DNA of 63,993 nucleotides, counting the filler, from Circinaria calcarea (lineage: Eukaryota): assembly GCA_051942165.1 (NCBI GenBank). It is 7 parts of 7 records of this genome, joined end to end, with 100 filler letters (N's around TTAATTAATTAA, not from the genome) between each part and the next. Parts side by side here need not be neighbours in the genome. Positions count along the whole stretch, not along the records: positions 27,899 to 37,090 come from JAVECS010000967.1; 6 more parts are not named here. One strand, written 5' to 3'. Every line of letters begins with the position of its first letter. Position 1 is the stretch's first letter. The notes below the pieces were generated by a model. The model saw only the letters and a list, made by a program, of their open reading frames with translations, made no database searches and was not told the DNA's origin. This document shows, piece by piece, positions 9,208 to 55,765 of the stretch. Both the position numbers and the translations under genes were made by a program.

Positions 9208-9307
9208 NNNNNNNNNNNNNNNNNNNNNNNNNNNNNNNNNNNNNNNNNNNNTTAATTAATTAANNNNNNNNNNNNNNNNNNNNNNNNNNNNNNNNNNNNN
9301 NNNNNNN
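9208..9307. other. Artificial contig linker N44-TTAATTAATTAA-N44
   Basis: All-frame stop spacer flanked by Ns; identical at six sites. Confidence 0.99.
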
Positions 9308-18504: not shown

Positions 18505-18604
18505 NNNNNNNNNNNNNNNNNNNNNNNNNNNNNNNNNNNNNNNNNNNNTTAATTAATTAANNNNNNNNNNNNNNNNNNNNNNNNNNNNNNNNNNNNNNNN
18601 NNNN
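18505..18604. other. Artificial contig linker
   Basis: N44-TTAATTAATTAA-N44. Confidence 0.99.
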
Positions 18605-24599: not shown

Positions 24600-26448
24600 A
24601 TGCTGTATATTCCTCTGGTTTCCTACTGGGCTGTTAGCATCTGGATGAACGTGGTTGCTGAATCTGTGGCAGCAAATCTTACTTTTCCAAATGGTACCTC
24701 TCTTCCGTCATCATCAAGGACATCTACCGCGACTTCTACTGCGACTTGTTCAAGTTTAGCATGTCAACTACATATCGGTTCTGTCGATGTTTTCTATTGG
24801 GCTGTTTCGTCAACCAATACCGACTGCCTGAAGAGTATAGCCACAGAGTATCTCGGCCGCCGTGAATATAATGCAAGAGAAACGCGGCCGGCCTCCACGC
24901 TTGGAAACACTCAAAATGGCAGTATACACACATATATCAACTCTGACGGGTTCACCTAGTACTATCATCATCTTTTTTAGTACTCCCATGGCTAATAAGT
25001 AAAGCAGTACTTCTCCATAAGCCTACGCCATGTTTTCGGCCGTTAGAGGTGTCGACAATTGCGGATCTACCGTTGCCGAGTACACTTCCCTCACGTTCTC
25101 TTTTGCCCCCGGAGAATTATCTACCAGCGAACCCGCACGAGGTCCAAAAGCGGCACCGTTTAACTTTGCAGACCTCCCGTGTCCTCCAGCGTCTGTAATA
25201 GCCGCAAACTGGTACTACTATAAACCCGGCATGCGATATCTTCCCAGATTTATTCCGCCCCCGCAAATTTACCAGTTACATCCTCACTTCAACAATTGTT
25301 TCGCATACCCGGGGAGTGTTTACGACCCTCAGTTTGCTCTTACGCCACAAATAGCATTAACCCCGTTCACCACTGCGGCGGGTGCACCTGGAGGTACGAG
25401 ATCGGTAGGTCCCGCTCCGGTACCATCAATTCCGAATGCAGCTCCCCTCCAAACGTCAACAAGCCCGAGCGGTATGAACACCATCCCAGGCGTAGCAACT
25501 AGCATTCCTACAAAGGGTGTTTCAGTCCTGGTTCCCGCACCCGAAAATTATTTAGAACCAGATCCGCATACTCAAGGTCCTCCGCCAGCTAGTCAACCAT
25601 CTCAAGGACATTCGAGTCAAGACCTATCAACTCAGACTCTTCCAGGCATAATATCCTCGACTGAAAATTTATTACTCCCAAGGCCAACACCTACAGAAGT
25701 CGATCATACTACAGCTCCAATTGCTATTGAGTTAAATCCTTCAGGACCGAATATCGATCCCCTGGAACGCCCTGCTCTCTCTTCCGACAATTTGGCCCCG
25801 CCTGTGATTATATATGGGACTGTCTTCTCGCTAAACCCCTCCATACCTATAACGGGCACTACCCTCGAACTACCACATGCTCCATCATCAGTCGCCATCA
25901 CCTTGTCCGGCCAAGTCTTTACCCATGATTCCCACCCCGCCTTGCTCGGTACCAGCACTTTCGATTCCGATACCGGACAAGCTGTCACCATCTCTGGCAT
26001 CCCCACACTCTCCCCATCACAAGCCGGCCTGGTTCTCGGTAGCACAGAGATTGACGTCAACGGTCAAGCCTTCACCGTAGCCCCGACAGGGTTTGCTGTC
26101 GATAGCATGACCCTCCTACCCGGAAGCCCGGCCATTACCATCTCTGGGACCATTGTCGCTTCGCTTGATGCGGAGGGGACGGACCTGGTAATTGGGACCC
26201 GCACGATTTCTCTACCCAAGACGACGGCGTCGGTTGGACTAGGCGGCTTGATCATAAGCGGGTTTCGGCCGATTGGAGAACCTAGCTCGTCTCCAATAGC
26301 AACCACGGCGAAAAGTAATACCACCACTAACGACGGAACGATTATGCCCTTTTCCGGCAACGGAGGGAGAAGAGCCGAAATCGGATAGGGGCAACTTAGA
26401 TTCTCGGTCGTGGGAATCATGCTCGCCTCGGGGATAGAGCTACCCTGA
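24600..26448 (+). pseudogene. Secreted Ser/Thr/Pro-rich, Cys-containing cell-wall-type (probably GPI) protein gene with in-frame stops
   Basis: Hydrophobic N-terminus. Intron 24959-25007 gives GFTYTSP*AYAMFSAVRGVDNCG (TAA at 25018-20). Motif PFNFADLPCPP and an S/T/P-rich region follow. A second stop TAG at 26386-88 precedes a hydrophobic tail (GQLRFSVVGIMLASGIELP*). Confidence 0.65.
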
Positions 26449-27160: not shown

Positions 27161-27237
27161 GACCTAGTGACCGTAGGTAATTTTTATTAAAAATGGAAAG
27201 AAAAAGATAAAGGAAAAGGAAAAAATCTGTCATTTAG

Positions 27238-27428
27238 ATCTTTTCATTTTGATTCTTTCATCTTTTCATCTTTTCATCTTTTCATCTTTTCATCTTTTCA
27301 TCTTTTCATCTTTTCATCTTTTCATCTTTCATCTTTTCATCTTTTCATCTTTTCATCTTTTCATCTTTTCATCTTTTCATCTTTTCATCTTTTCATCTTT
27401 TCATCTTTTCATCTTTTCATCTCTTCAT
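27238..27428. repeat. Octamer tandem repeat (TCTTTTCA)n, about 20 or more copies
   Basis: Directly visible repeat. Confidence 0.97.
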
Positions 27429-27469
27429 TTAACATTGAAAACGAAAACGGAAACAGAAATAGAAAAGGG

Positions 27470-27785
27470 AAAAACAGTCCCGAGCCATACCACCATACCT
27501 CCTTGGTAAATTTTTGGTAGACTAAACAAACGTCTGTTCTGAAAAAAAAAATCCCAATCTATTTCCGAATCCATTTTCCGAGCCAGTCAGTCAGTCATTC
27601 GTACCGCCGAATCTATAAAAAAAAATTCCCCTGATAAGGAGATAGATATGAACAGTTGGGAGATGTTAATTATTTTTTTCTTCTTTCTTTCTCACCCGTG
27701 GATTACATCCTAGTGAAGTGTGGCTTTTGGGATGTTGGGGGGGAGGTTAGGAACTTCGGATATTGAAGGGCCCCCGGGGAGGGGG
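27470..27785. repeat. Degenerate direct repeat, copy B (partner at about 24000-24240)
   Basis: Same blocks as copy A, with poly-A/T insertions. Confidence 0.6.
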
Positions 27786-27798
27786 TGTTAGGAGAGGA

Positions 27799-27898
27799 NN
27801 NNNNNNNNNNNNNNNNNNNNNNNNNNNNNNNNNNNNNNNNNNTTAATTAATTAANNNNNNNNNNNNNNNNNNNNNNNNNNNNNNNNNNNNNNNNNNNN
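27799..27898. other. Artificial contig linker
   Basis: N44-TTAATTAATTAA-N44. Confidence 0.99.
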
Positions 27899-28815
27899 GT
27901 GTAGTTGGGGGAGCTTCCTCTTTTGTATTCATACCTCAACCTTTCAGGTAGCTCAATACTCTGACCACAAAGTTGAGTCAGCCACGTTCCAACGACACTC
28001 TCTGCGAGATTCCTTCGCTTGTCATTGAAATCAAAATAGTGATAAGCGATGGCTGTTGAATTCCCAGTGTCGCAAACAACTTTGATTGCATCAACAATCT
28101 TGGAGAACAGCACAGTTTTGCCACAGCCAGAGGTTCCATGTAGCCAGAGTACAGTACCGGAAGTTTTTATCCAGTGAGTATAGTGAGGACTTACAAGTAG
28201 CCAGTCTCCAGTATCTGGGGCCCGCGTCTTGCGTGCGGTAATGTGGTTCGTAGATTGTGGGGCGCCTAGCCAAGCCATGACCTCCCGGAACTCGGTATTC
28301 TGCTTTTGGTGCTCCAGTTTAGTGGTCAGTGTGTTGATACTTTACCGGATGTGCCCCAGGTCCCTTGTAGACTCGCGAATCACTATTGTATTCGCTGCGT
28401 TGTCCGCTAATAGCGCGAGCTGTAGAGTTTGTTTCACCCGTCCTATGAAATCTAAGCTCTTAATAGCATCACCTTCCCTCAACGGCCACATCAGCGCCTT
28501 GCTTGCAGCTCTCCATCCTTTCTCGGGCTCAAGCCTTTTTTTAAGTGATTCAAGCTCCACGAGGCATTGAGTGAGTGGTCCGTCTGGGCCTGTTTGCTTC
28601 TCCAGCGTAGGAAGCCCTTGAGACTGTGGATCCTCAATCACAAGCTGATGAAGACGCTCGACAATACTACGGAAACTTGTAACCTCATTTTGGACACGAA
28701 GAAGATCTCGTGGAGCGTTCTTCACGGCTCCACGGTAACGATAGCAGATTGTAATAATCTTGGAGCTGATGTCGATGATGGTGATAAAGCTGGCCACGAT
28801 GCTTAAGGGATCCAT
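27899..28815 (-). pseudogene. Fungal NLR-like STAND gene (HeLo-like/SesA-type N-terminal domain + NACHT), in-frame TAA at 28342-28344, 3' truncated by the contig end
   Basis: MDPLSIVAS..VKNAPRD..EV..CLVELESLKKRL..ALMWPLRE; the same frame continues HIR*SINTL..REVMAWLGAP..TGDWLL..WLHGTSGCGKTVL (Walker A)..AYHYFDFND. Confidence 0.8.
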
Positions 28816-31422
28816 TGCTGTGCGTCAATCTATTGCACGCTGTTTTTCTGTACTATGAATCGGAGTTAGCTCTAAACACCACGCAAAGACAAAAATTACC
28901 AAAAGGGAATATTGGTGTTAGGCGTGCATAAGGTGCCATGGAAAGGGTAGTTACTAAAGACTCTAGGACAAGCCAGCCCCTCAATCCTAGTTGTATGCAG
29001 GCAGAGTCCGGTATAATGTACCTAGTCAGCCGAAGCAGTACTTGAGGGACTGTAAAACTGTTAAATTGAAGAGATGATTATATCTTTACTAAATAGGAAG
29101 TAAAAAAGTAGTGCTGGAGGACGCATCAACGCCGTGCGGCTGAGGTCAAGCTAGCAAAAGGCTTGGCATAAAATATCGCTGGTAGTATGATGATAGGCGC
29201 CTTTTCAAAAAAATTTGTTTAATTCCGCAAGGGTTAGGCGAAGGCGCTGGCTAGGATTTCATTTCCCTCATAAACCTTCTCATAGGTGATTATGAACGTA
29301 GATTTACTCGTAGCGATATAGCTGTTATGGCGCCAGCACCATAGCATGTGCTAAGCCCGGGAGGGGCTAGTGCCGGAGCATAGTAACCCCGGGACCGTGC
29401 TCAGTGGTAATGAGCATAGGTGAGCAACATGAGCAGGCGCATTATATAAAACAGGCTATTACCGCTCTTTAGAATAGCATGCTTATGGAACCATAACAAG
29501 TTCAATATACTCCTTTTATATTGAGCCTAGGGCAACAGTTCAACTACACCCTATGTAACCGTGCTATTACCAATCGGGACTTATCATATTCCTCAATAGG
29601 CCCTAAGGATTGCAGCGCCCTTACAATAGCCCCTCACGTAAAAGCGTTGTTGACCTTAAGATTTACGCTTAAAAACTCTACATAAATCTCTGATCCAGGC
29701 CCGGAATCAGCCTTTCTATAATCGAGTCATTTATATAATGCCGCCAGCCACTCACGAACCAAACGCGTTATTAATGATGTAATTAAAACCCACTCCTTCT
29801 CACTAACGACCATATAAAGGGCTTTCTAGTGTTCCATTATGGTATAAGAAAAACCGGCCAACGAAATCCGCTAGACCAGAAAGGGGCAGCGATTAAAAAC
29901 ACACATTCAACAAAAAGTTAATCCACTTCAAGGCCGTATGGTAGAACTTATTAGATCCTCTCAGCTATCAAGAGGTGCTTTGAAAAACTAAATACGCATA
30001 CACCGAACCACCGAGGATCCCAACGAGTATACCTCATCATATACCTTCCTACCTCTACATCAAGGGAGAAACAATCAGAGAGGACCCAGCTATATAGCAC
30101 CGCGCTCTCTAAAATATGCATGAGGAATCTTCTCTGAGAATTAGTGGCGGCTATTTCTTATCTGCAGTCCACTGACTTCTACCAATCAGCTTTATAAATC
30201 CCCGAGAGGGTTCCCACCGAAGCAAACCCTCCCGCCCATGCCTACGGCACTCAGTGTCAAGCTCTCCTTCTAGCCCGGTCGGGAGCGATGAAAGAGGGGT
30301 AGGATGGGACTAGGAAGAAGCGCACTGGGAAGAGCTTAGCCGTTTAGGCTTTCACGGACTAAATTTAGAGCTATGAGCTTTGCTTGGATCATCTTCTCCA
30401 GACGATCAATTATGTATTTCCAAGTCTAATCTGCTATGTCGTATACCCCAAGTAACATCTCCACTCTACCTAACCATTCCCTTTCGACATGGCTGCTTCC
30501 TATCTCATACGCAGGACCCGTCTATGTGATAATTTACCAAGCCGATAGCTAGCCAGCTAATAAAAACAGCTGAAAGCCGTAGGTATTTTCGTCGTAAGGA
30601 TTTGTAGCTCAAGAAAGCCCATAAGATAGAGCCTCCTAACGAAAGTCATTTCCTTTTTGTGGAGATCATCATCCGCTTTTTCAGCGAGTTCGACTATCAT
30701 GATAGAAGAGCCTTGTGACTGGCATGAGCAGTAATCCATGTGTCATTCACAGTTGATGAGCCGAATGAATATGGTAGGAAGTGACGCGACTATAGTAGCT
30801 CCTCTGTGATCATTAGGTATGGCGAATTTATTACAGCCATGGTGATTCTCGCGGTACACGTCTCTTAGCGAATCCAAGGCAGGTATATATGACCGCCAAC
30901 CAAAGCCCGGAAGATGAAGATGAAGCGCAAAAGCCATGGAGGTTGGTATGGCGAGATTTTGCAGACCCGAAGAATCAACACCTCTTGAAGTGGCGGCACT
31001 GTAGAACCTAAGCTCTATATCCTCGGTCATTACAGGAAGCGTGTGCGGTAATGAATGTGTGTTGACTAAGTGTTGAATATGTCCATGGCGCTGTTGGGTA
31101 GATTCACTGCTTCTTCTTGTTCTTCGCATCTTCGCCTTCGCTCCGCTACTTATCCTCGTCATCAAGATCTTCCTCCTCCATTGACAAGGCTTTAGTCCAG
31201 TAGCCATTTGTCAGATACATCCTGTCTTATTTCGTATGCATCAGCTGGTCCCTTGTATATTCAAAGCTTCTTGCCCTGTCCGAGTTCTGGGACCTCTGGT
31301 AAGTTTGGTGCCCTCACAAGGTACAACACTACCATAAGCTCACTATCTCAATACTAGTAGTTAACAGATCATCAGAGTCTTCCTTCGATCATATCTTCCA
31401 AGCACCAAAAGGACCTGTCAAT

Positions 31423-32277
31423 ATGTCAACTACTATGGAATCAGCGCCGGCTGCGTGGAGAATGACCCAAGACGTGACGAACTCTGTTGCAGAAGAACTC
31501 CATCACTTTGCAACAGGCATCGAATTTGACAGCTCCATCCTCCGAGTCATGTTCATAAAGGTCAGGCACGAACTGGCTTGCAACTGGGGCTGTGTCGAAT
31601 TAGCCTACGATACCGTGTACAAGCGCATTCTCGCCCTAGGCTCCTTTGGTGAAATCCTAAACGGGGGGATACATGAAAGGCATATGGTGCCCCAGACGTG
31701 GCGTGGAGCTGCTATGGCAGAAAGTGTCAGGGCCACTGGTATCCTTACCGATCCTCTTCTAGACATGATGGAGAGGGATATTGGGATGTGGACTGTCAAT
31801 TTCCCTTCAAGACACCCGTTCCAAGTCTTGGCCAATCAAACCTTCCGAGTCATCTTCTATGAAGCCACTAGAATATTCCAGGTGTCGGAAAACACGGCCT
31901 TGTCGAGTGACAACGTTCAGGTGACAGATGATCATACCGCAGAGTTGAGGAAAGAGAATGAGCGGCTAAAACAGGAGAACCGAGACCTGAGGAAGGAAAA
32001 CCAGGACTTTAAGGGGGAGGTCAAGAGCATAAAGAAGGAAGCAGAGGCTACAATCTGCGACTTGAATCAATCCTATGACAACAGTTGGGAGAGGCTGATG
32101 GACGATATGAATATTGAACGTGGAAATTGGAGGCGAGAAAAATGGCAGCTAGAGGATGAGAAAGAAAATCTCCAGGCCGGGGTTCGTGACCTAGAAGGCC
32201 GGCTTCGGGTCATGACAGACAAGTACCGGCGGGAGTGGTTTCTCAGGTACGCTGATGGTGGAACGTACTGGAGTTAG
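31423..32277 (+). CDS. Orphan coiled-coil protein, paralog A (novel N-domain + coiled coil + aromatic tail)
   Basis: Intact 284-aa ORF; homologous by eye to the genes at 32891 and 34552. Confidence 0.8.
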   Translation: MSTTMESAPAAWRMTQDVTNSVAEELHHFATGIEFDSSILRVMFIKVRHELACNWGCVELAYDTVYKRILALGSFGEILNGGIHERHMVPQTWRGAAMAESVRATGILTDPLLDMMERDIGMWTVNFPSRHPFQVLANQTFRVIFYEATRIFQVSENTALSSDNVQVTDDHTAELRKENERLKQENRDLRKENQDFKGEVKSIKKEAEATICDLNQSYDNSWERLMDDMNIERGNWRREKWQLEDEKENLQAGVRDLEGRLRVMTDKYRREWFLRYADGGTYWS

Positions 32278-32890
32278 CATAGGATATAAGAACCCGGTAC
32301 AGTGTCATCAAGGTCCTAATAGGTGTCGTTTCCTTGGTAGTAGTCGATATATAACCGGCAATGACTGCCATGGCGGTACAGGAGAAACAGTGGTATATAT
32401 GACTTTTCCGAGTCTCGAAATACCTTCCTTGAACTATTATGTAGTAGTTATTTCGTGAGACTGTAGCACGCCAAGTTGAAAGTCGTGACATATAGATGCT
32501 GACTGATACTCGGCCAATCGTGGGTTCGACTGACGATGGTGGAAGTCCAAATGTAAACGTAAATACACTTGATCGTACCCGAGGCTCAGCAGTCTTTATC
32601 AGAATATCCCTAGTTCTTTCGAAGGTATATATTTGCAGACATATCGCGTTGGGTTTCTTCCTCAACGCACTCTCAACACAGCTGCTCCCACAGTTCCCAG
32701 CCTAAGTGTTGGAGGAGAATCACTAACAAGTTAACCACAGTAAACAGATCTCGCAAACTTTTCTTCCTCTCGCAGCCACAAACATCGTCCACCAATAGCC
32801 AGTTTTGAGCTGGATAATTGTCTAACTGCCACTCCTCCTTCATCACAGCATATCTCTTTAGCTCCCATTCAACTAGTCTCCTGTACCAAA

Positions 32891-33843
32891 ATGGCATCAA
32901 AGTGGACGAAGTCATCCTTGTTCAAGAGCGTCTCCTTACCAAAAATCTTCAAGATGGGCGAGCGTTCGACACCTCAAGCAGAAGGTACTATCCTTGTGAG
33001 AACCCAAAAGCCTAGAAAGACAGAACTGACTCCAAATTAGAGCCTAAAGATACGCTTGCAGACCAACTTGAAGCTGCAAACACATTGCTCTCAAAGCGTT
33101 CGTCGGAGATCGCCGCGTTAAGACGCCAGGTAGTCCGCGAGAAAGCAAACAAAGCTATTATCGCACAAGAACTCTATGCCGCAATGAAGGAGTCTAATGC
33201 CCGGTCAAAAGCGGTAGATAAGATGGCAGAGGACATTGAAGTCTTGCAAGAGCAACTCGAGACCAAGGCCAATAAAGAGGCATCCCGGGCCAGGTCGTTC
33301 GAAGTCCTTAAATCCGAAGTATCGGGTTGGGAAAAGATCTTGGTAGACGATTGCGATGCCTTGAAGCAAGAAAACAACCGTGTTGAGGCAAAATACCAAG
33401 AGGCATTGCTTCAAAATGGCCAGCTACATGAGCAGATCCAAAGTCTTAAAGACGAGATATCGGACTGGGAAACCACCGATGCTCAACTCGAGGCAGACCG
33501 CGATGCTCTAAAAGCTGAGGGTATCAAGACGGCCTTGAAGTACGGACATGCAAGGCTCGAGAATTCCAATTTACGCAAGACCCTGGTGGAGGTGGTGAAC
33601 AAGGCGAACGACACACTGGATATCATGGTACACAGGCTGAAGACGTCGAATACCAGGAATGCAGAAGTGAGGGAAATATTAGGCGAACAAATCCGTGGAC
33701 TAGTGATCGAGAAGGAGGAGCTCGAGGACACCATCAGTGGCCTTGACCATAGGCTTCGGATCGCCACTGCGCATTGGTATCAGGAGAGATATAGGCGGTA
33801 TATCGATGGGGACTACCGATTTGATGGGAACTATTGGAGGTAG
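32891..33843 (+). CDS. Orphan coiled-coil protein, paralog B; intron 32985-33040
   Basis: ATG exon MASKWTKSS..QAE; GTACTA..ACTGAC..TAG intron in the correct phase; long heptad-rich region; tail RLRIATAHWYQERYRRYIDGDYRFDGNYWR*. Confidence 0.75.
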
Positions 33844-34551
33844 AATCGATGCTGCCAAATGGAGGAGGCGAAGCCGTTTTCCTGAGAGTTTATTAAAGAG
33901 GTGATGGCCTTCTCCGGTAGATTCGAGCGATAGTAGGCGCTGGGAAGTTTCTGGCTACCTTGTGATCCCGGGGGGCTAATTCTGGAACTATGCTTTAGTG
34001 GTAGAAGTCTGTATGAGAGCCGAGTAGGAAGACTGGCATTTAGAATGTAGTCGGCTGGTGTTTATATCTGTCCCTTGAGTGTTCATACCGTGCATAGGCT
34101 ATGGTTTCGGATTGACCATCTCAAGCTGCGAATTTGACTCCGGGTTACCTGCCCTGTCTGTATTATGTTTAGCGTAGACTCATCCTACCTCGCTCCGTTG
34201 TGTGTCACATAAAGAAACTCCTGTTAACTCTAAAGTTAACACACTCAAGGCGGCGCATCATTATATGAACGTATTGCAGATGGTGACATAAACTCAAAAC
34301 TTACCAGAGTGTTGATATCAGTGTCGGTTAGATCATTAATTGCGGCTCGTATCTCCTCTGTTCTGAACAGCTGAATCTTTTCAACCAACCACAACACCAT
34401 TCTTCCATCCTCAGAAATCACACACAATCGATAAGATCATTGTCACCAAGGAGCTTCCATCCAATTCATCAAGCGTCATCGATTTCGATCCTCAGGCCTG
34501 TGGACTTTGCTGCTTAGCTTATGTGGTCGCCAAAGTACCTCGTTTCTCGCA

Positions 34552-35681
34552 ATGTCAGTTTTCACAGGAGCTTCGGAGGCCTTGGCGGTGAGAGAAATAT
34601 GTCAATACCACTACCTAGCAGCCGGCTAACAGATATATAGGCGAGTAGTATTCAGCCCAGCCAGCGCCAGTTAGCTTTGGCAGGAAATGTTCCCAATAGT
34701 CCTCAACCATCTCCCAGTCCACCCGCTGCTTGGAGCAAGACCCATGCCATTATAATCTCTACGTACGGGACGGAGAAGCTACAGCAGCTCAGAGCGGGTC
34801 GCATCGACGCATCTATCCTGCAAATCGTCTTCGTCAAGCTTCGCCAAATGCTCCTACAGAAATGGCTCGATGTCCCTCTCGCCTACCATTCCATTTACAA
34901 GCGCCTGAAGATGCTTTCACTGATTTTATGGTTCTCCAATGGTTGCAAATTAGCCAGTGTTGCTCAGCAGCCGTGGCTGATCTGGCATGACGATGTTGCG
35001 ATCCGGATTGAAGCAACCGGTGAAATCACGAATCAGATGCTAGATCGAATGGAGAGCGACCTCAAGCTTTGGCTCATAGCTGCCCAGAATAAGACGCTCC
35101 AGTGCTTCCATTCCAAGGATTACCCAGCTCTCATCAGTGGATGTTTGAGAGGGATCCTCATTCATGAATCGGAGACATATCCGATGGGTAAGAAGGTCAA
35201 TGAGCATGTCAAAGATAGAAACAAGCTTCTGCTTGTTAACGACAGACTATCCAAGCTCAACGTCTCACTCGAAGAGAAGAATCGCAAACTCGGCGAGGAA
35301 AACACCGAACTCAAAGCCAAGAATGACAAGCTCGAAACCCAGAATAACAGGGTTGAGCTGAAAGTTGTATTCCTCGACATTGACCTTGAAGGGAAGAACC
35401 AACAAGTAGCAGATTTAAAGAAGGAGAAGGCCGCCATACAACAAGATAAGCTACGGAGAATCGAGGAGTTGGAAGAAGATTTTCAGCAGTTACAGGCAAA
35501 CGTTCAAGGCTTGCAGACAGCAGTTCAACACCTGCGAGCAGAAAATCAGAATCTAGAAACAGATAACGAGGATCTGGCGAGTAGGATGCGAGATTTGGAG
35601 CTCCAGCTCCGGACTTCTGAATTGGAGTTACGCCGGGAAAGATATCTGAGGGGCACGGGCAGTGATTACATGTGGACTTAG
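34552..35681 (+). CDS. Orphan coiled-coil protein, paralog C; intron 34588-34640
   Basis: Exon 1 MSVFTGASEALA, GTGAGA..GCTAAC..TAG intron, then the long ORF; shares the N-domain with paralog A and the tail with A and B. Confidence 0.8.
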
Positions 35682-36330
35682 CCTGGGTACCTGTCTAGAT
35701 ATACAACAAGTCAATGCTCATCTCCGGTGCTTGTGTCATCTCCTGTCCTCCTCACTTCATGCATCCATGGTGATTGCTGAGTTGCAGATCGGTGAACGCT
35801 GAACGGAGAAGCGGCCTGAATATGCCTCCGTTACATAGTCACTTTCCCCTCTTGTTCAATTCGAGATCCATTGGCCCATGATCAGGCTTCCATGTTCAAT
35901 TGGAAAGTAACCCCAGTCTAAGAGATCCCGGGTGGCTGATGTCCCATGGATGAATATCCACTGTTGAATTATTCGAACGCATTGGATCCTGCGTGTTCTT
36001 CATGTGTGTGATTGATAGGTTTTCGGAGTACATTAGGTACAACGTTGACAGGACTACAGCTGCAAACCTAGTTGAGATAAAAAGGTCGCCGTCAGGAATA
36101 ATTGATCAGGATGCGGCTCCCTCGGACGACATGTCGTTGGGGATCAAGCTAATCCTCGTCAGGTCTAGCTTGTTTGATTGTAACTCTTCAAGACAGCTAC
36201 GTTCAAGGCGGGATGGAAACATTATGCGCCAGAGAGGCCAGCTCATTTCGCCATCATCTCACGTTTCTGCCACTTTTAATTTTCACATCATCATCCCTTA
36301 ACACAGCCAAGCTTACGCCTTGAAGTCCCC

Positions 36331-37090
36331 CTAATACCCAGCAATGGCCTTGGGCGCATATGGTTCCTCCAACTTCTGAATCTCCTCCTCGGTAAGCTTC
36401 AACTTCACAGCCTCCACGGCCTCATCGATCCTCTGCGTACTCCCCAACCCAATGATGGGATTCACGCCTTCCTTGCTTAGGCACCAAGCTGTTGCCACAG
36501 CAGCCATAGGGACACCTCTCTTCTTGGCGATCTCTTCAACGCGGTCTACGATAGCATGATCGATGTCGTTCTCTTTGGCGCGAATGAGGCTGTGTAGAAA
36601 CCCGTCCGAGACTTCGCGGGGAGTGGATCGGGAAGACCAAGGACGGGCAAGTACGCCGCGGGCAATCGGGGACCACTAGATGAGAAAATCAGACGGAGTC
36701 CAGACGCGTGATCAGTCTTTTGCAAATCACAGCTTACCGGAATGCATCCCACCCCCGTATCCCGACAATACGGTAGCATCTCCCGCTCCTCCTCCCGATA
36801 GAGTAGGTTGTAGTAATTCTGCATACTGACAAACTGATGCCATCCATGCTCCTTGGCTATATTCTGCAAAGTCTGGAATTCCCAGGCTGCCATCTAAGTA
36901 GTCTAGGATTAGCATAGTCTCCTCCCTCTCTCGCCTGTAGACTCAGCCTACCGAACTAGCACCGATGTACCTCACCCACCCCTTCTCCACTACATCATTC
37001 AATGCCTTCATAATCTCCTCCCGATTCGTATCTCTGTCCAAACGATGGATCTGTAGCACATCGATATAAGTTCCCAGCCTCTTCACGCTC
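36331..37090 (-). CDS. Aldo-keto reductase (aryl-alcohol dehydrogenase-like), 5' truncated, two introns visible
   Basis: [76 protein letters not shown]. Confidence 0.92.
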
Positions 37091-37190
37091 NNNNNNNNNN
37101 NNNNNNNNNNNNNNNNNNNNNNNNNNNNNNNNNNTTAATTAATTAANNNNNNNNNNNNNNNNNNNNNNNNNNNNNNNNNNNNNNNNNNNN
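37091..37190. other. Artificial contig linker
   Basis: N44-TTAATTAATTAA-N44. Confidence 0.99.
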
Positions 37191-46378: not shown

Positions 46379-46478
46379 NNNNNNNNNNNNNNNNNNNNNN
46401 NNNNNNNNNNNNNNNNNNNNNNTTAATTAATTAANNNNNNNNNNNNNNNNNNNNNNNNNNNNNNNNNNNNNNNNNNNN
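46379..46478. other. Artificial contig linker
   Basis: N44-TTAATTAATTAA-N44. Confidence 0.99.
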
Positions 46479-55665: not shown

Positions 55666-55765
55666 NNNNNNNNNNNNNNNNNNNNNNNNNNNNNNNNNNN
55701 NNNNNNNNNTTAATTAATTAANNNNNNNNNNNNNNNNNNNNNNNNNNNNNNNNNNNNNNNNNNNN
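55666..55765. other. Artificial contig linker
   Basis: N44-TTAATTAATTAA-N44. Confidence 0.99.

Follow-up and report, generated by a model that had tools for sequence, protein, structure and literature searches.

Three tandem coiled-coil genes of Circinaria calcarea: a possible lineage-restricted fungal family of head-stalk-tail proteins with a headless member

The stretch of Circinaria calcarea DNA analyzed here (GenBank assembly GCA_051942165.1), referred to below as the window, is 63,993 bases long and consists of concatenated contigs. One of them, JAVECS010000967.1, carries three neighboring genes, A, B, and C, which a first inspection of the sequence (the original prediction) had described as a tandem trio of unrecognized paralogous coiled-coil genes, with a novel N-terminal domain in A and C and a conserved C-terminal tail in all three. 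Since the window joins unrelated contigs, arguments from a shared contig or from neighborhood are valid only inside positions 27899 to 37090. Our preferred reading, which we put forward tentatively, is that A, B, and C are real, intact, and anciently duplicated members of a lineage-restricted fungal family of coiled-coil proteins built from a head, a stalk, and a tail, with B as a headless member. Below, we describe the gene models, the domains of the encoded proteins, and the range and age of the family, and we then weigh the ways in which the three proteins might work.

Gene models of the trio

Genes A, B, and C were found to be intact and co-oriented on the plus strand, as had been predicted, with open frames, start codons, and canonical short introns (Table 1). 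There is no in-frame ATG upstream of gene A, and its orthologues P0004 and P0005 begin at the same methionine. Short introns with CTRAC branch sites, together with the type of the neighboring NLR gene described below, suggest a fungal, ascomycete-like source. The earlier version of gene B was right with regard to exon 2, but exon 1 and the 56-nucleotide (nt) intron were missing from that open reading frame (ORF); the exon 1 peptide is kept in the orthologue P0009. The W-x-TAG ending that had been noted for all three genes was recovered at the codon level, reading TGG AGT TAG in A, TGG AGG TAG in B, and TGG ACT TAG in C.

We then examined codon usage, expressed as a log-likelihood ratio (LLR) per codon. 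The coding frames of the trio scored 0.15 to 0.23, and the other sense frames and the intergenic DNA scored about 0. For gene A, the value was 0.149 in frame, compared with -0.058 and 0.025 in the other two sense frames, and the frame 1 reverse complement also gave 0.149. Two neighboring genes on the same contig, encoding a reductase and a NOD-like receptor (NLR), scored 0.20 and 0.11.

Table 1. Coordinates of the trio, its domains, and the other features of its contig (positions in the window; aa, amino acids; AF2, AlphaFold2; pLDDT, predicted local distance difference test score; E, expect value)
Feature	Position	Strand	Remarks
Gene A	31423..32277	+	Single exon, 284 aa; head, stalk, tail
Head of A	31495..31872	+	About aa 25-150; all-helical (predicted)
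Coiled-coil stalk of A	31933..32250	+	aa 171-276; one AF2 helix, pLDDT 81-90
Tail of A	32143..32274	+	aa 241-284; ends Y-W-S, then TAG; 90% identical to P0004
Gene B, exon 1	32891..32984	+	31 codons + 1 base
Gene B, intron	32985..33040	+	56 nt, GTACTA...CTGAC...TTAG; CTGAC is the branch site; removal restores the frame
Gene B, exon 2	33041..33843	+	Spliced protein 298 aa; coiled coil throughout, headless
Tail of B	33709..33840	+	5-residue insert before Y-W-R, then TAG; 73-86% identity among B orthologues
Gene C, exon 1	34552..34587	+	12 codons
Gene C, intron	34588..34640	+	53 nt, GTGAGA...GCTAAC...ATAG; in frame
Gene C, exon 2	34641..35681	+	Spliced protein 358 aa; head, longer stalk, tail
Head of C	34773..35165	+	BLASTP to A head; five AF2 helices
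Tail of C	35547..35678	+	Ends M-W-T, then TAG; A-tail profile E 0.0054, above all decoys
Real contig of the trio	27899..37090	.	9192 nt, spacer on each side
NLR gene, 5' part	27899..28824	-	NPHP3_N E 5e-23, NACHT E 3e-4; truncated at contig end
Aldo/keto reductase gene, 3' part, with introns	36331..37090	-	Aldo_ket_red matches on three ORF pieces

Head, stalk, and tail of the encoded proteins

The N-terminal domain of about 130 amino acids that had been predicted for A and C, here called the head, lies outside the coiled coil and was recovered independently of it. When full-length A and C were compared by BLASTP, they aligned with an E value of 5e-21, and the heads alone still aligned significantly, with 42/123 identical residues (34%; 63.5 bits; E 4e-18). 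An alignment of the head from seven family members contains 20 invariant columns. The absence of this domain from B was likewise upheld: tblastn searches of the window with A and C found only each other at this domain and detected no head in B.

AF2 modeling of A, based on an alignment of six sequences, yielded a mean pLDDT of 65, with six or seven helices across residues 11 to 155 (pLDDT 50 to 69) and a disordered linker at residues 150 to 169. The head of C, modeled on its own from seven sequences, gave five helices at a pLDDT of 62 and a predicted template modeling score of 0.53. In front of the head, an S-P-P-A-A-W motif is present at positions 31441-31458 in A and 34719-34736 in C and also occurs in both A orthologues; the distant relative P0011, described below, has a proline-rich stretch instead.

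All three proteins contain heptad-patterned helical stalks of 100 to 250 residues, in which hydrophobic residues make up a fraction of 0.5 to 0.88 at the a and d positions, compared with 0.05 to 0.30 at the other positions. This periodicity, together with the single confident helix that AF2 placed in the stalk of A, substantiated the coiled coils of the original prediction.

The product of gene B is heptad-patterned almost throughout, with a strongly conserved central block. This block, at about 33433-33520 (residues 131 to 159 of P0002), is near-invariant in 5/5 B-clade sequences, and because it is as conserved as the tail, it represents a second candidate interaction site. In place of a head, B has a short N-terminal peptide, encoded by exon 1, that is basic, with six lysine or arginine residues and one aspartate or glutamate residue among its first 30 amino acids. 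Judged by this composition, it possibly resembles an amphipathic targeting or membrane-binding peptide, such as a mitochondrial presequence.

The C-terminal tails comprise about 40 residues, are predicted to be mostly helical, and are described here, for all three proteins, as ending in aromatic-W-x. BLASTP aligned A and B at their extreme C termini (17/43 identical; E 8e-6), and B compared with C alone gave no significant match (E 0.073). Tail relationships were also assessed with clade-specific hidden Markov models (HMMs), each run against the real proteins and 400 shuffled versions per target. The B-clade tail HMM matched the A tail with an E value of 8.5e-5, outranking all 2000 decoys, and with the A-clade tail HMM, 3/3 B-clade proteins and C ranked higher than any of 2400 decoys, each match falling at the C terminus. 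The C-tail profile found both A-clade proteins, and one decoy outranked its best B match. Given that the A-B and A-C matches are significant and the B-C match is not, tail homology between B and C is transitive via A. The claim of related tails in all three proteins therefore holds for A and B and, by profile, for A and C, but not for B and C directly. Across an alignment of eight tails, eight columns are invariant, including an L-R pair, an E, an R, and the penultimate W.

The beginning of the stalk also bears on the idea that the trio encodes leucine-zipper transcription regulators, in which the stalk start would act as a dimerizing zipper and the head as a regulatory domain. Weak bZIP_1 and HALZ matches do fall on the first stalk heptads, with E values of 0.06 and 0.018 for A, 0.0023 for the A orthologue P0004, and 0.099 for C. 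These matches, however, score 13 to 18 bits (13.2 to 18.4), well short of the 27.6 required, span no more than the zipper half, and are accompanied by dozens of equally weak generic coiled-coil matches. Moreover, the residues ahead of the putative zipper are acidic or neutral and do not form a basic DNA-binding region, and the stalk far exceeds the length of a zipper. We consider this reading highly improbable.

Range and age of the family

To place the trio among known proteins, we searched A, B, and C, the relatives P0004, P0006, P0009, and P0011, and the isolated heads against Pfam with hmmscan, reporting matches at E values of ≤1 for the three proteins of the trio and ≤0.1 for the relatives and heads. 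No model reached its cut-off in any of these searches. The sole Pfam match on the head was SLT_3 (E 0.011 to 0.017; 16 bits, compared with 27 required), and everything else was sub-threshold coiled-coil noise. Run against PDB sequences, the head profile found 0 matches at an E value of ≤10; the tail profile found 10 at this level, the best of which, the MIEF1 upstream-ORF microprotein, was not significant (E 0.55). In the ESM Atlas, there was no usable match for residues 1 to 165 of A, and the B tail reached a best score of 0.89, under the line of 0.9, against unnamed clusters of 44 to 48 amino acids.

Searches by predicted fold were similarly unproductive. The best match to the A head model was the DinB-like four-helix bundle 8f5v_B (Z 9.4; root mean square deviation 2.8; 114 residues aligned), and for the C head model, a segment of myosin VI came first (Z 8.4) and 8f5v_B 31st (Z 6.1). 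The noise level of this search for helical models lies at a Z of about 13, all Z-scores of the A and C heads were lower, and the top matches differed between the two models. The 50 rows listed for each head model (pLDDT 50 to 70) included no MLKL or HeLo chain. The likeness of the A head to DinB-like bundles extends to 3cex_B and 3dka_B (Z 8.0 each), but sequence identity to these bundles is 4 to 10%, the scores lie under the noise level, and the model itself has a pLDDT of 50 to 69. Foldseek against the PDB returned 0 matches at an E value of ≤0.001 (best E 3.3). With head Z-scores below helical noise and an empty Foldseek result, the head is a predicted helical bundle without an assignable family.

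An exhaustive HMMER scan of 1.84 billion representative sequences with a two-sequence profile of the A and C heads gave five matches at an E value of ≤0.001, of which the A cluster, the C cluster, and P0011 are real. P0012 and P0013, which were matched in five to six short stretches, were rejected as tandem-repeat artefacts. P0011 is a distant fourth member of 261 amino acids, with a head E value of 2.7e-13 in the HMMER scan and pairwise head E values of 4e-16 to A and 1e-13 to C; its C-terminal half is helical and ends in F-W-L. Thus, the family is as unrecognized as the original prediction had supposed, with no Pfam model at cut-off, no significant PDB sequence match, and three real clusters among 1.84 billion representatives. 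In scans of JGI metagenomes, 0/379 pattern matches were confirmed with A3 and 0/593 with A5, and tblastn with A, B, and C found no further copies of the trio anywhere in the window.

Closer relatives came from a word-indexed search of 5.8 billion clusters, from which the “longer” and “shorter” length classes were left out, so that further relatives in fused or split form may exist. This search yielded two relatives of A among 289 candidates, two of C among 3271, and three of B among 1083. The A orthologues are P0004 (71% identity and, at 284 amino acids, the same length) and P0005 (81%, a fragment); the B orthologues are P0008/P0014 (87 to 88%), P0009 (62%), and P0010 (56%); and the C orthologues are P0006 (65%) and P0007 (68%, a fragment). 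All of these are singletons or pairs from ENA/Logan assemblies. Each gene thus has orthologues of its own at 56 to 88% identity, with matching lengths and ends, and the paralogues A and C are 25 to 34% identical, indicating that the duplications predate the sampled lineages. This agrees with the proposal of an old duplication whose copies were retained.

Conservation is unevenly distributed along the proteins. A and P0004 are most alike in the tail (90% identity), followed by the head (77%), and linker and stalk reach 60% and 59%. For head, linker, stalk, and tail of C and P0006, the values are 82%, 52%, 70%, and 66%, with the head of C 81 to 82% identical to those of its orthologues. For B and P0009, stalk identity is 58 to 61% and tail identity 73%. 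As judged from these sequence comparisons, such uneven conservation, with head and tail best conserved, is the pattern expected of functional ends. We also noted that P0004, P0009, and P0007, orthologues of A, B, and C, are each reported on a contig of 6687 nt and that P0010 and P0006, orthologues of B and C, are each reported on a contig of 18278 nt. The equal sizes of the reported contigs suggest that the trio is linked in relatives too. P0008 and P0011 are reported on contigs of 4961 and 42891 nt, respectively.

These comparisons allowed us to weigh two further explanations. In the first, A, B, and C would be ORFs that are open by chance, or pseudogenes decaying within a variable region, a view with which the lack of any family name or annotation on the records of the relatives, and an unexplained in-frame stop in the neighboring NLR gene, would be consistent. 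Three open frames of 284 to 358 codons with starts and canonical introns, the domain-wise conservation in orthologues from several assemblies, and an in-frame codon bias like that of the neighboring reductase gene all argue against it, and we find it barely credible.

The second explanation is a selfish element, either a toxin-antidote or spore-killer drive locus or cargo carried by a mobile element. Paralogues that lie in tandem and diverge fast, with a patchy and very narrow distribution, would fit such an element, as would the relative whose 18278-nt contig yields B and C orthologues and no A. The orthologues, however, keep their length and architecture at 56 to 88% identity, like vertically inherited genes, and no transmembrane or known killer domain was found. 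In addition, the contig of the trio has no terminal inverted or long direct repeats, with just chance-size matches of 14 to 23 nt, its ORFs show no transposase, recombinase, or reverse transcriptase signal, and there are no extra copies in the window. A selfish origin therefore seems to us to have very little probability.

Co-assembly, the neighboring NLR gene, and likeness to known systems

If A, B, and C do form a family of head-stalk-tail proteins, they would be expected to associate through their coiled coils as dimers or higher oligomers. A, B, and C could then co-assemble by way of a common assembly or docking element formed by the conserved end of the stalk and the tail, and the head, in A and C, would bind a partner specific to the lineage. 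Without a head, B may alter the valency or the composition of the assembly, acting as an adaptor or a competitor.

Complex prediction covered one pair, full-length A with residues 130 to 266 of B, together with three controls. The pair reached an ipSAE of 0.43 (0.42 to 0.44 across runs), compared with 0.00 for the best control, and was graded as weak support; the partner had a pLDDT of ≥69, ≥70% of contacts agreed between runs, and no interface was reported. Of the 78 solved complexes, 51 reached the pass mark, as did 2/108 mismatched pairs; at scores of ≤0.60, it was reached by 5/78 solved complexes and all four passing mismatches, and passes in this range are more often wrong than right unless binding is likely beforehand. 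Since the tails are shared and the three coiled-coil genes are neighboring paralogues, binding has a moderate prior likelihood; the A-B score therefore amounts to a small push, and it speaks weakly for the hetero-oligomerizing module of the original prediction.

Several observations weigh against our preferred reading. The A-B complex score is weak, and structure predictors tend to lay coiled-coil segments side by side. Both head models are of low confidence (pLDDT 50 to 70), which makes the predicted fold of the head provisional. The profile test detected no relationship between the tail of P0011 and those of A, B, and C, and the direct similarity of the B and C tails failed to beat shuffled decoys. 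The antisense frame 1 LLR equals the sense value for A and C, and the codon test thus tells the frame but not the strand. Finally, linkage in the relatives was read from equal contig sizes and not from DNA, and the word-based search found no A orthologue for the 18278-nt contig.

We next considered the surroundings of the trio. Spacers of the form N44-TTAATTAATTAA-N44, where TTAATTAATTAA is a six-frame stop string, lie at 9208-9307, 18505-18604, 27799-27898, 37091-37190, 46379-46478, and 55666-55765. They are spaced about 9.3 kb apart and separate segments of, in descending order, 9207, 9197, 9194, 9192, 9188, and 9187 nt; the word-based search reports a longest contig of 9192 nt for protein A. 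As the contigs are joined by spacers, ORFs or apparent “synteny” across them are artefacts. The JmjC/PHD, UCH, eIF2B, APC4, adaptin, and Atg3 genes in the window are on other contigs and are not neighbors of the trio, whose true neighbors are the NLR fragment and the aldo/keto reductase gene only. The statement that an NLR lies on the same contig was therefore right for the 5' part of the NLR gene, but the window itself spans several contigs.

The reductase gene is convergent with gene C and truncated at the contig end. On the other side, the NLR gene is divergent from gene A at a distance of 2.6 kb, and the gap between them contains no ORF with a notable Pfam match. The N-terminal 160 amino acids of the NLR match PigL_N weakly (E 0.0076, below the cut-off). 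An in-frame stop at 28342-28344 on the minus strand splits this N-terminal domain from the NACHT/NPHP3_N part. A GTAAAG donor directly follows the stop, and the acceptors seen by eye, 34 and 46 nt on, break the frame; the explanation may be pseudogenization, an unusual intron, or an error in the sequence. Elsewhere in the window, away from the trio contig, an AT-rich tandem repeat at 27177-27520 reads SSFHLFIF... in several frames within surroundings of about 40% GC, and a 455-codon open frame at 25021-26388, rich in proline, serine, and threonine and without a Pfam match, may, to judge from its composition, encode a secreted or cell wall protein.

Amyloid signaling motifs are rich in G, N, and Q. 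In fungal two- and three-gene clusters, as set out in a review, an NLR activates a HeLo or HELL helical-bundle executioner via a short amyloid motif that is common to the N terminus of the NLR and the C terminus of the effector (PMC12881547). A corresponding explanation of the trio is an NLR-linked cell death or allorecognition module, in which the heads of A and C would resemble the HeLo, HELL, or MLKL four-helix bundles, attack membranes as executioners, and be activated by the NLR through their tails, with B as a regulator. The divergent NLR fragment 2.6 kb away on the same contig, the prediction of the heads as up-down helical bundles (a DinB-like four-helix bundle at Z 9.4 being the best match for A), and the very narrow distribution of the family are in line with this view. 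However, hmmscan of A, B, and C (E ≤1) and of the four relatives and the isolated heads (E ≤0.1) detected no HeLo, HeLo-like/PigL_N, HET, SesA, or Goodbye match. The bundle matches themselves lie below the noise level of about Z 13 and differ at the top between A and C. No part of the NLR at 27899-28824 was found by tblastn with A, B, and C, and hhalign of heads and tails to the N-terminal 160 amino acids of the NLR gave probabilities of 0.2% and 0.1% (0.1% for the tail). Furthermore, the NLR opens with a weak PigL_N-like domain of its own, which indicates an all-in-one architecture and not a signaling motif, and the trio tail, predicted to be helical and rich in R, E, and aromatic residues, is unlike the amyloid motifs. 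Adjacency to the NLR is also known from one contig only.

Taken together, these results make a cell death or allorecognition module unlikely. The allorecognition, cell death, or drive role suggested in the original prediction was not borne out: we found no HeLo, HELL, or HET match and no motif in common with the NLR N terminus, and adjacency is the only link. On the features tested, the trio does not belong to the amyloid-signaling NLR-effector clusters, although it may, with low probability, work in a similar way.

A different arrangement would be a self-contained head-to-tail assembly. Here, docking of the W-ended tails into the helical heads would let A and C polymerize, or alternate between a closed and an open state. 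B, having a tail but no head, would serve as a cap or a decoy, and the divergent NLR would guard or trigger the assembly. If true, this would represent a new non-amyloid coupling of a fungal NLR to an effector, a kind of coupling not described in the passages of the review considered here (PMC12881547). We regard such an assembly as very unlikely.

Comparison with known systems reveals both likenesses and differences. Like HET-S/NWD2 and HELLP/PNT1, the trio comprises small proteins that carry a helical domain at the N terminus and a short conserved element at the C terminus and that are encoded in a small, lineage-variable cluster beside an NLR gene. Unlike HeLo and HELL proteins, however, the trio heads have no HeLo or HELL sequence match, and head and tail are separated by a long coiled coil. 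In contrast to HET-S/NWD2, the tail is predicted to be helical, and nothing corresponds to it at the N terminus of the NLR, which has its own N-terminal domain, and the trio consists of three paralogues, one of them headless.

Golgins with a GRIP domain and adaptors of the Hook and BicD type are long coiled-coil tethers with a small conserved C-terminal targeting domain. The trio recalls these proteins, as they are generally described, in its head-stalk-tail layout, with conserved ends and a fast-evolving stalk. It differs from them in lacking a GRIP or Hook Pfam match, the only matches being generic sub-threshold coiled-coil ones, in the much shorter length of its proteins (284 to 358 amino acids), and in the confinement of the family to very few assemblies.

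Fungi commonly have orphan families of this kind. If our preferred reading of A, B, and C as an anciently duplicated head-stalk-tail family is true, the trio would add another taxonomically restricted fungal family with a previously undescribed head, a domain absent from current libraries, and a conserved tail, and both head and tail would have been under constraint since before the sampled relatives diverged. Conserved NLR adjacency or head-tail docking, if true, would raise the importance of the finding sharply, although nothing here points to conservation of the NLR adjacency. The value of the family would otherwise be modest, in that it would offer a small three-gene test case, with one headless member, for the co-assembly of orphan coiled-coil paralogues.

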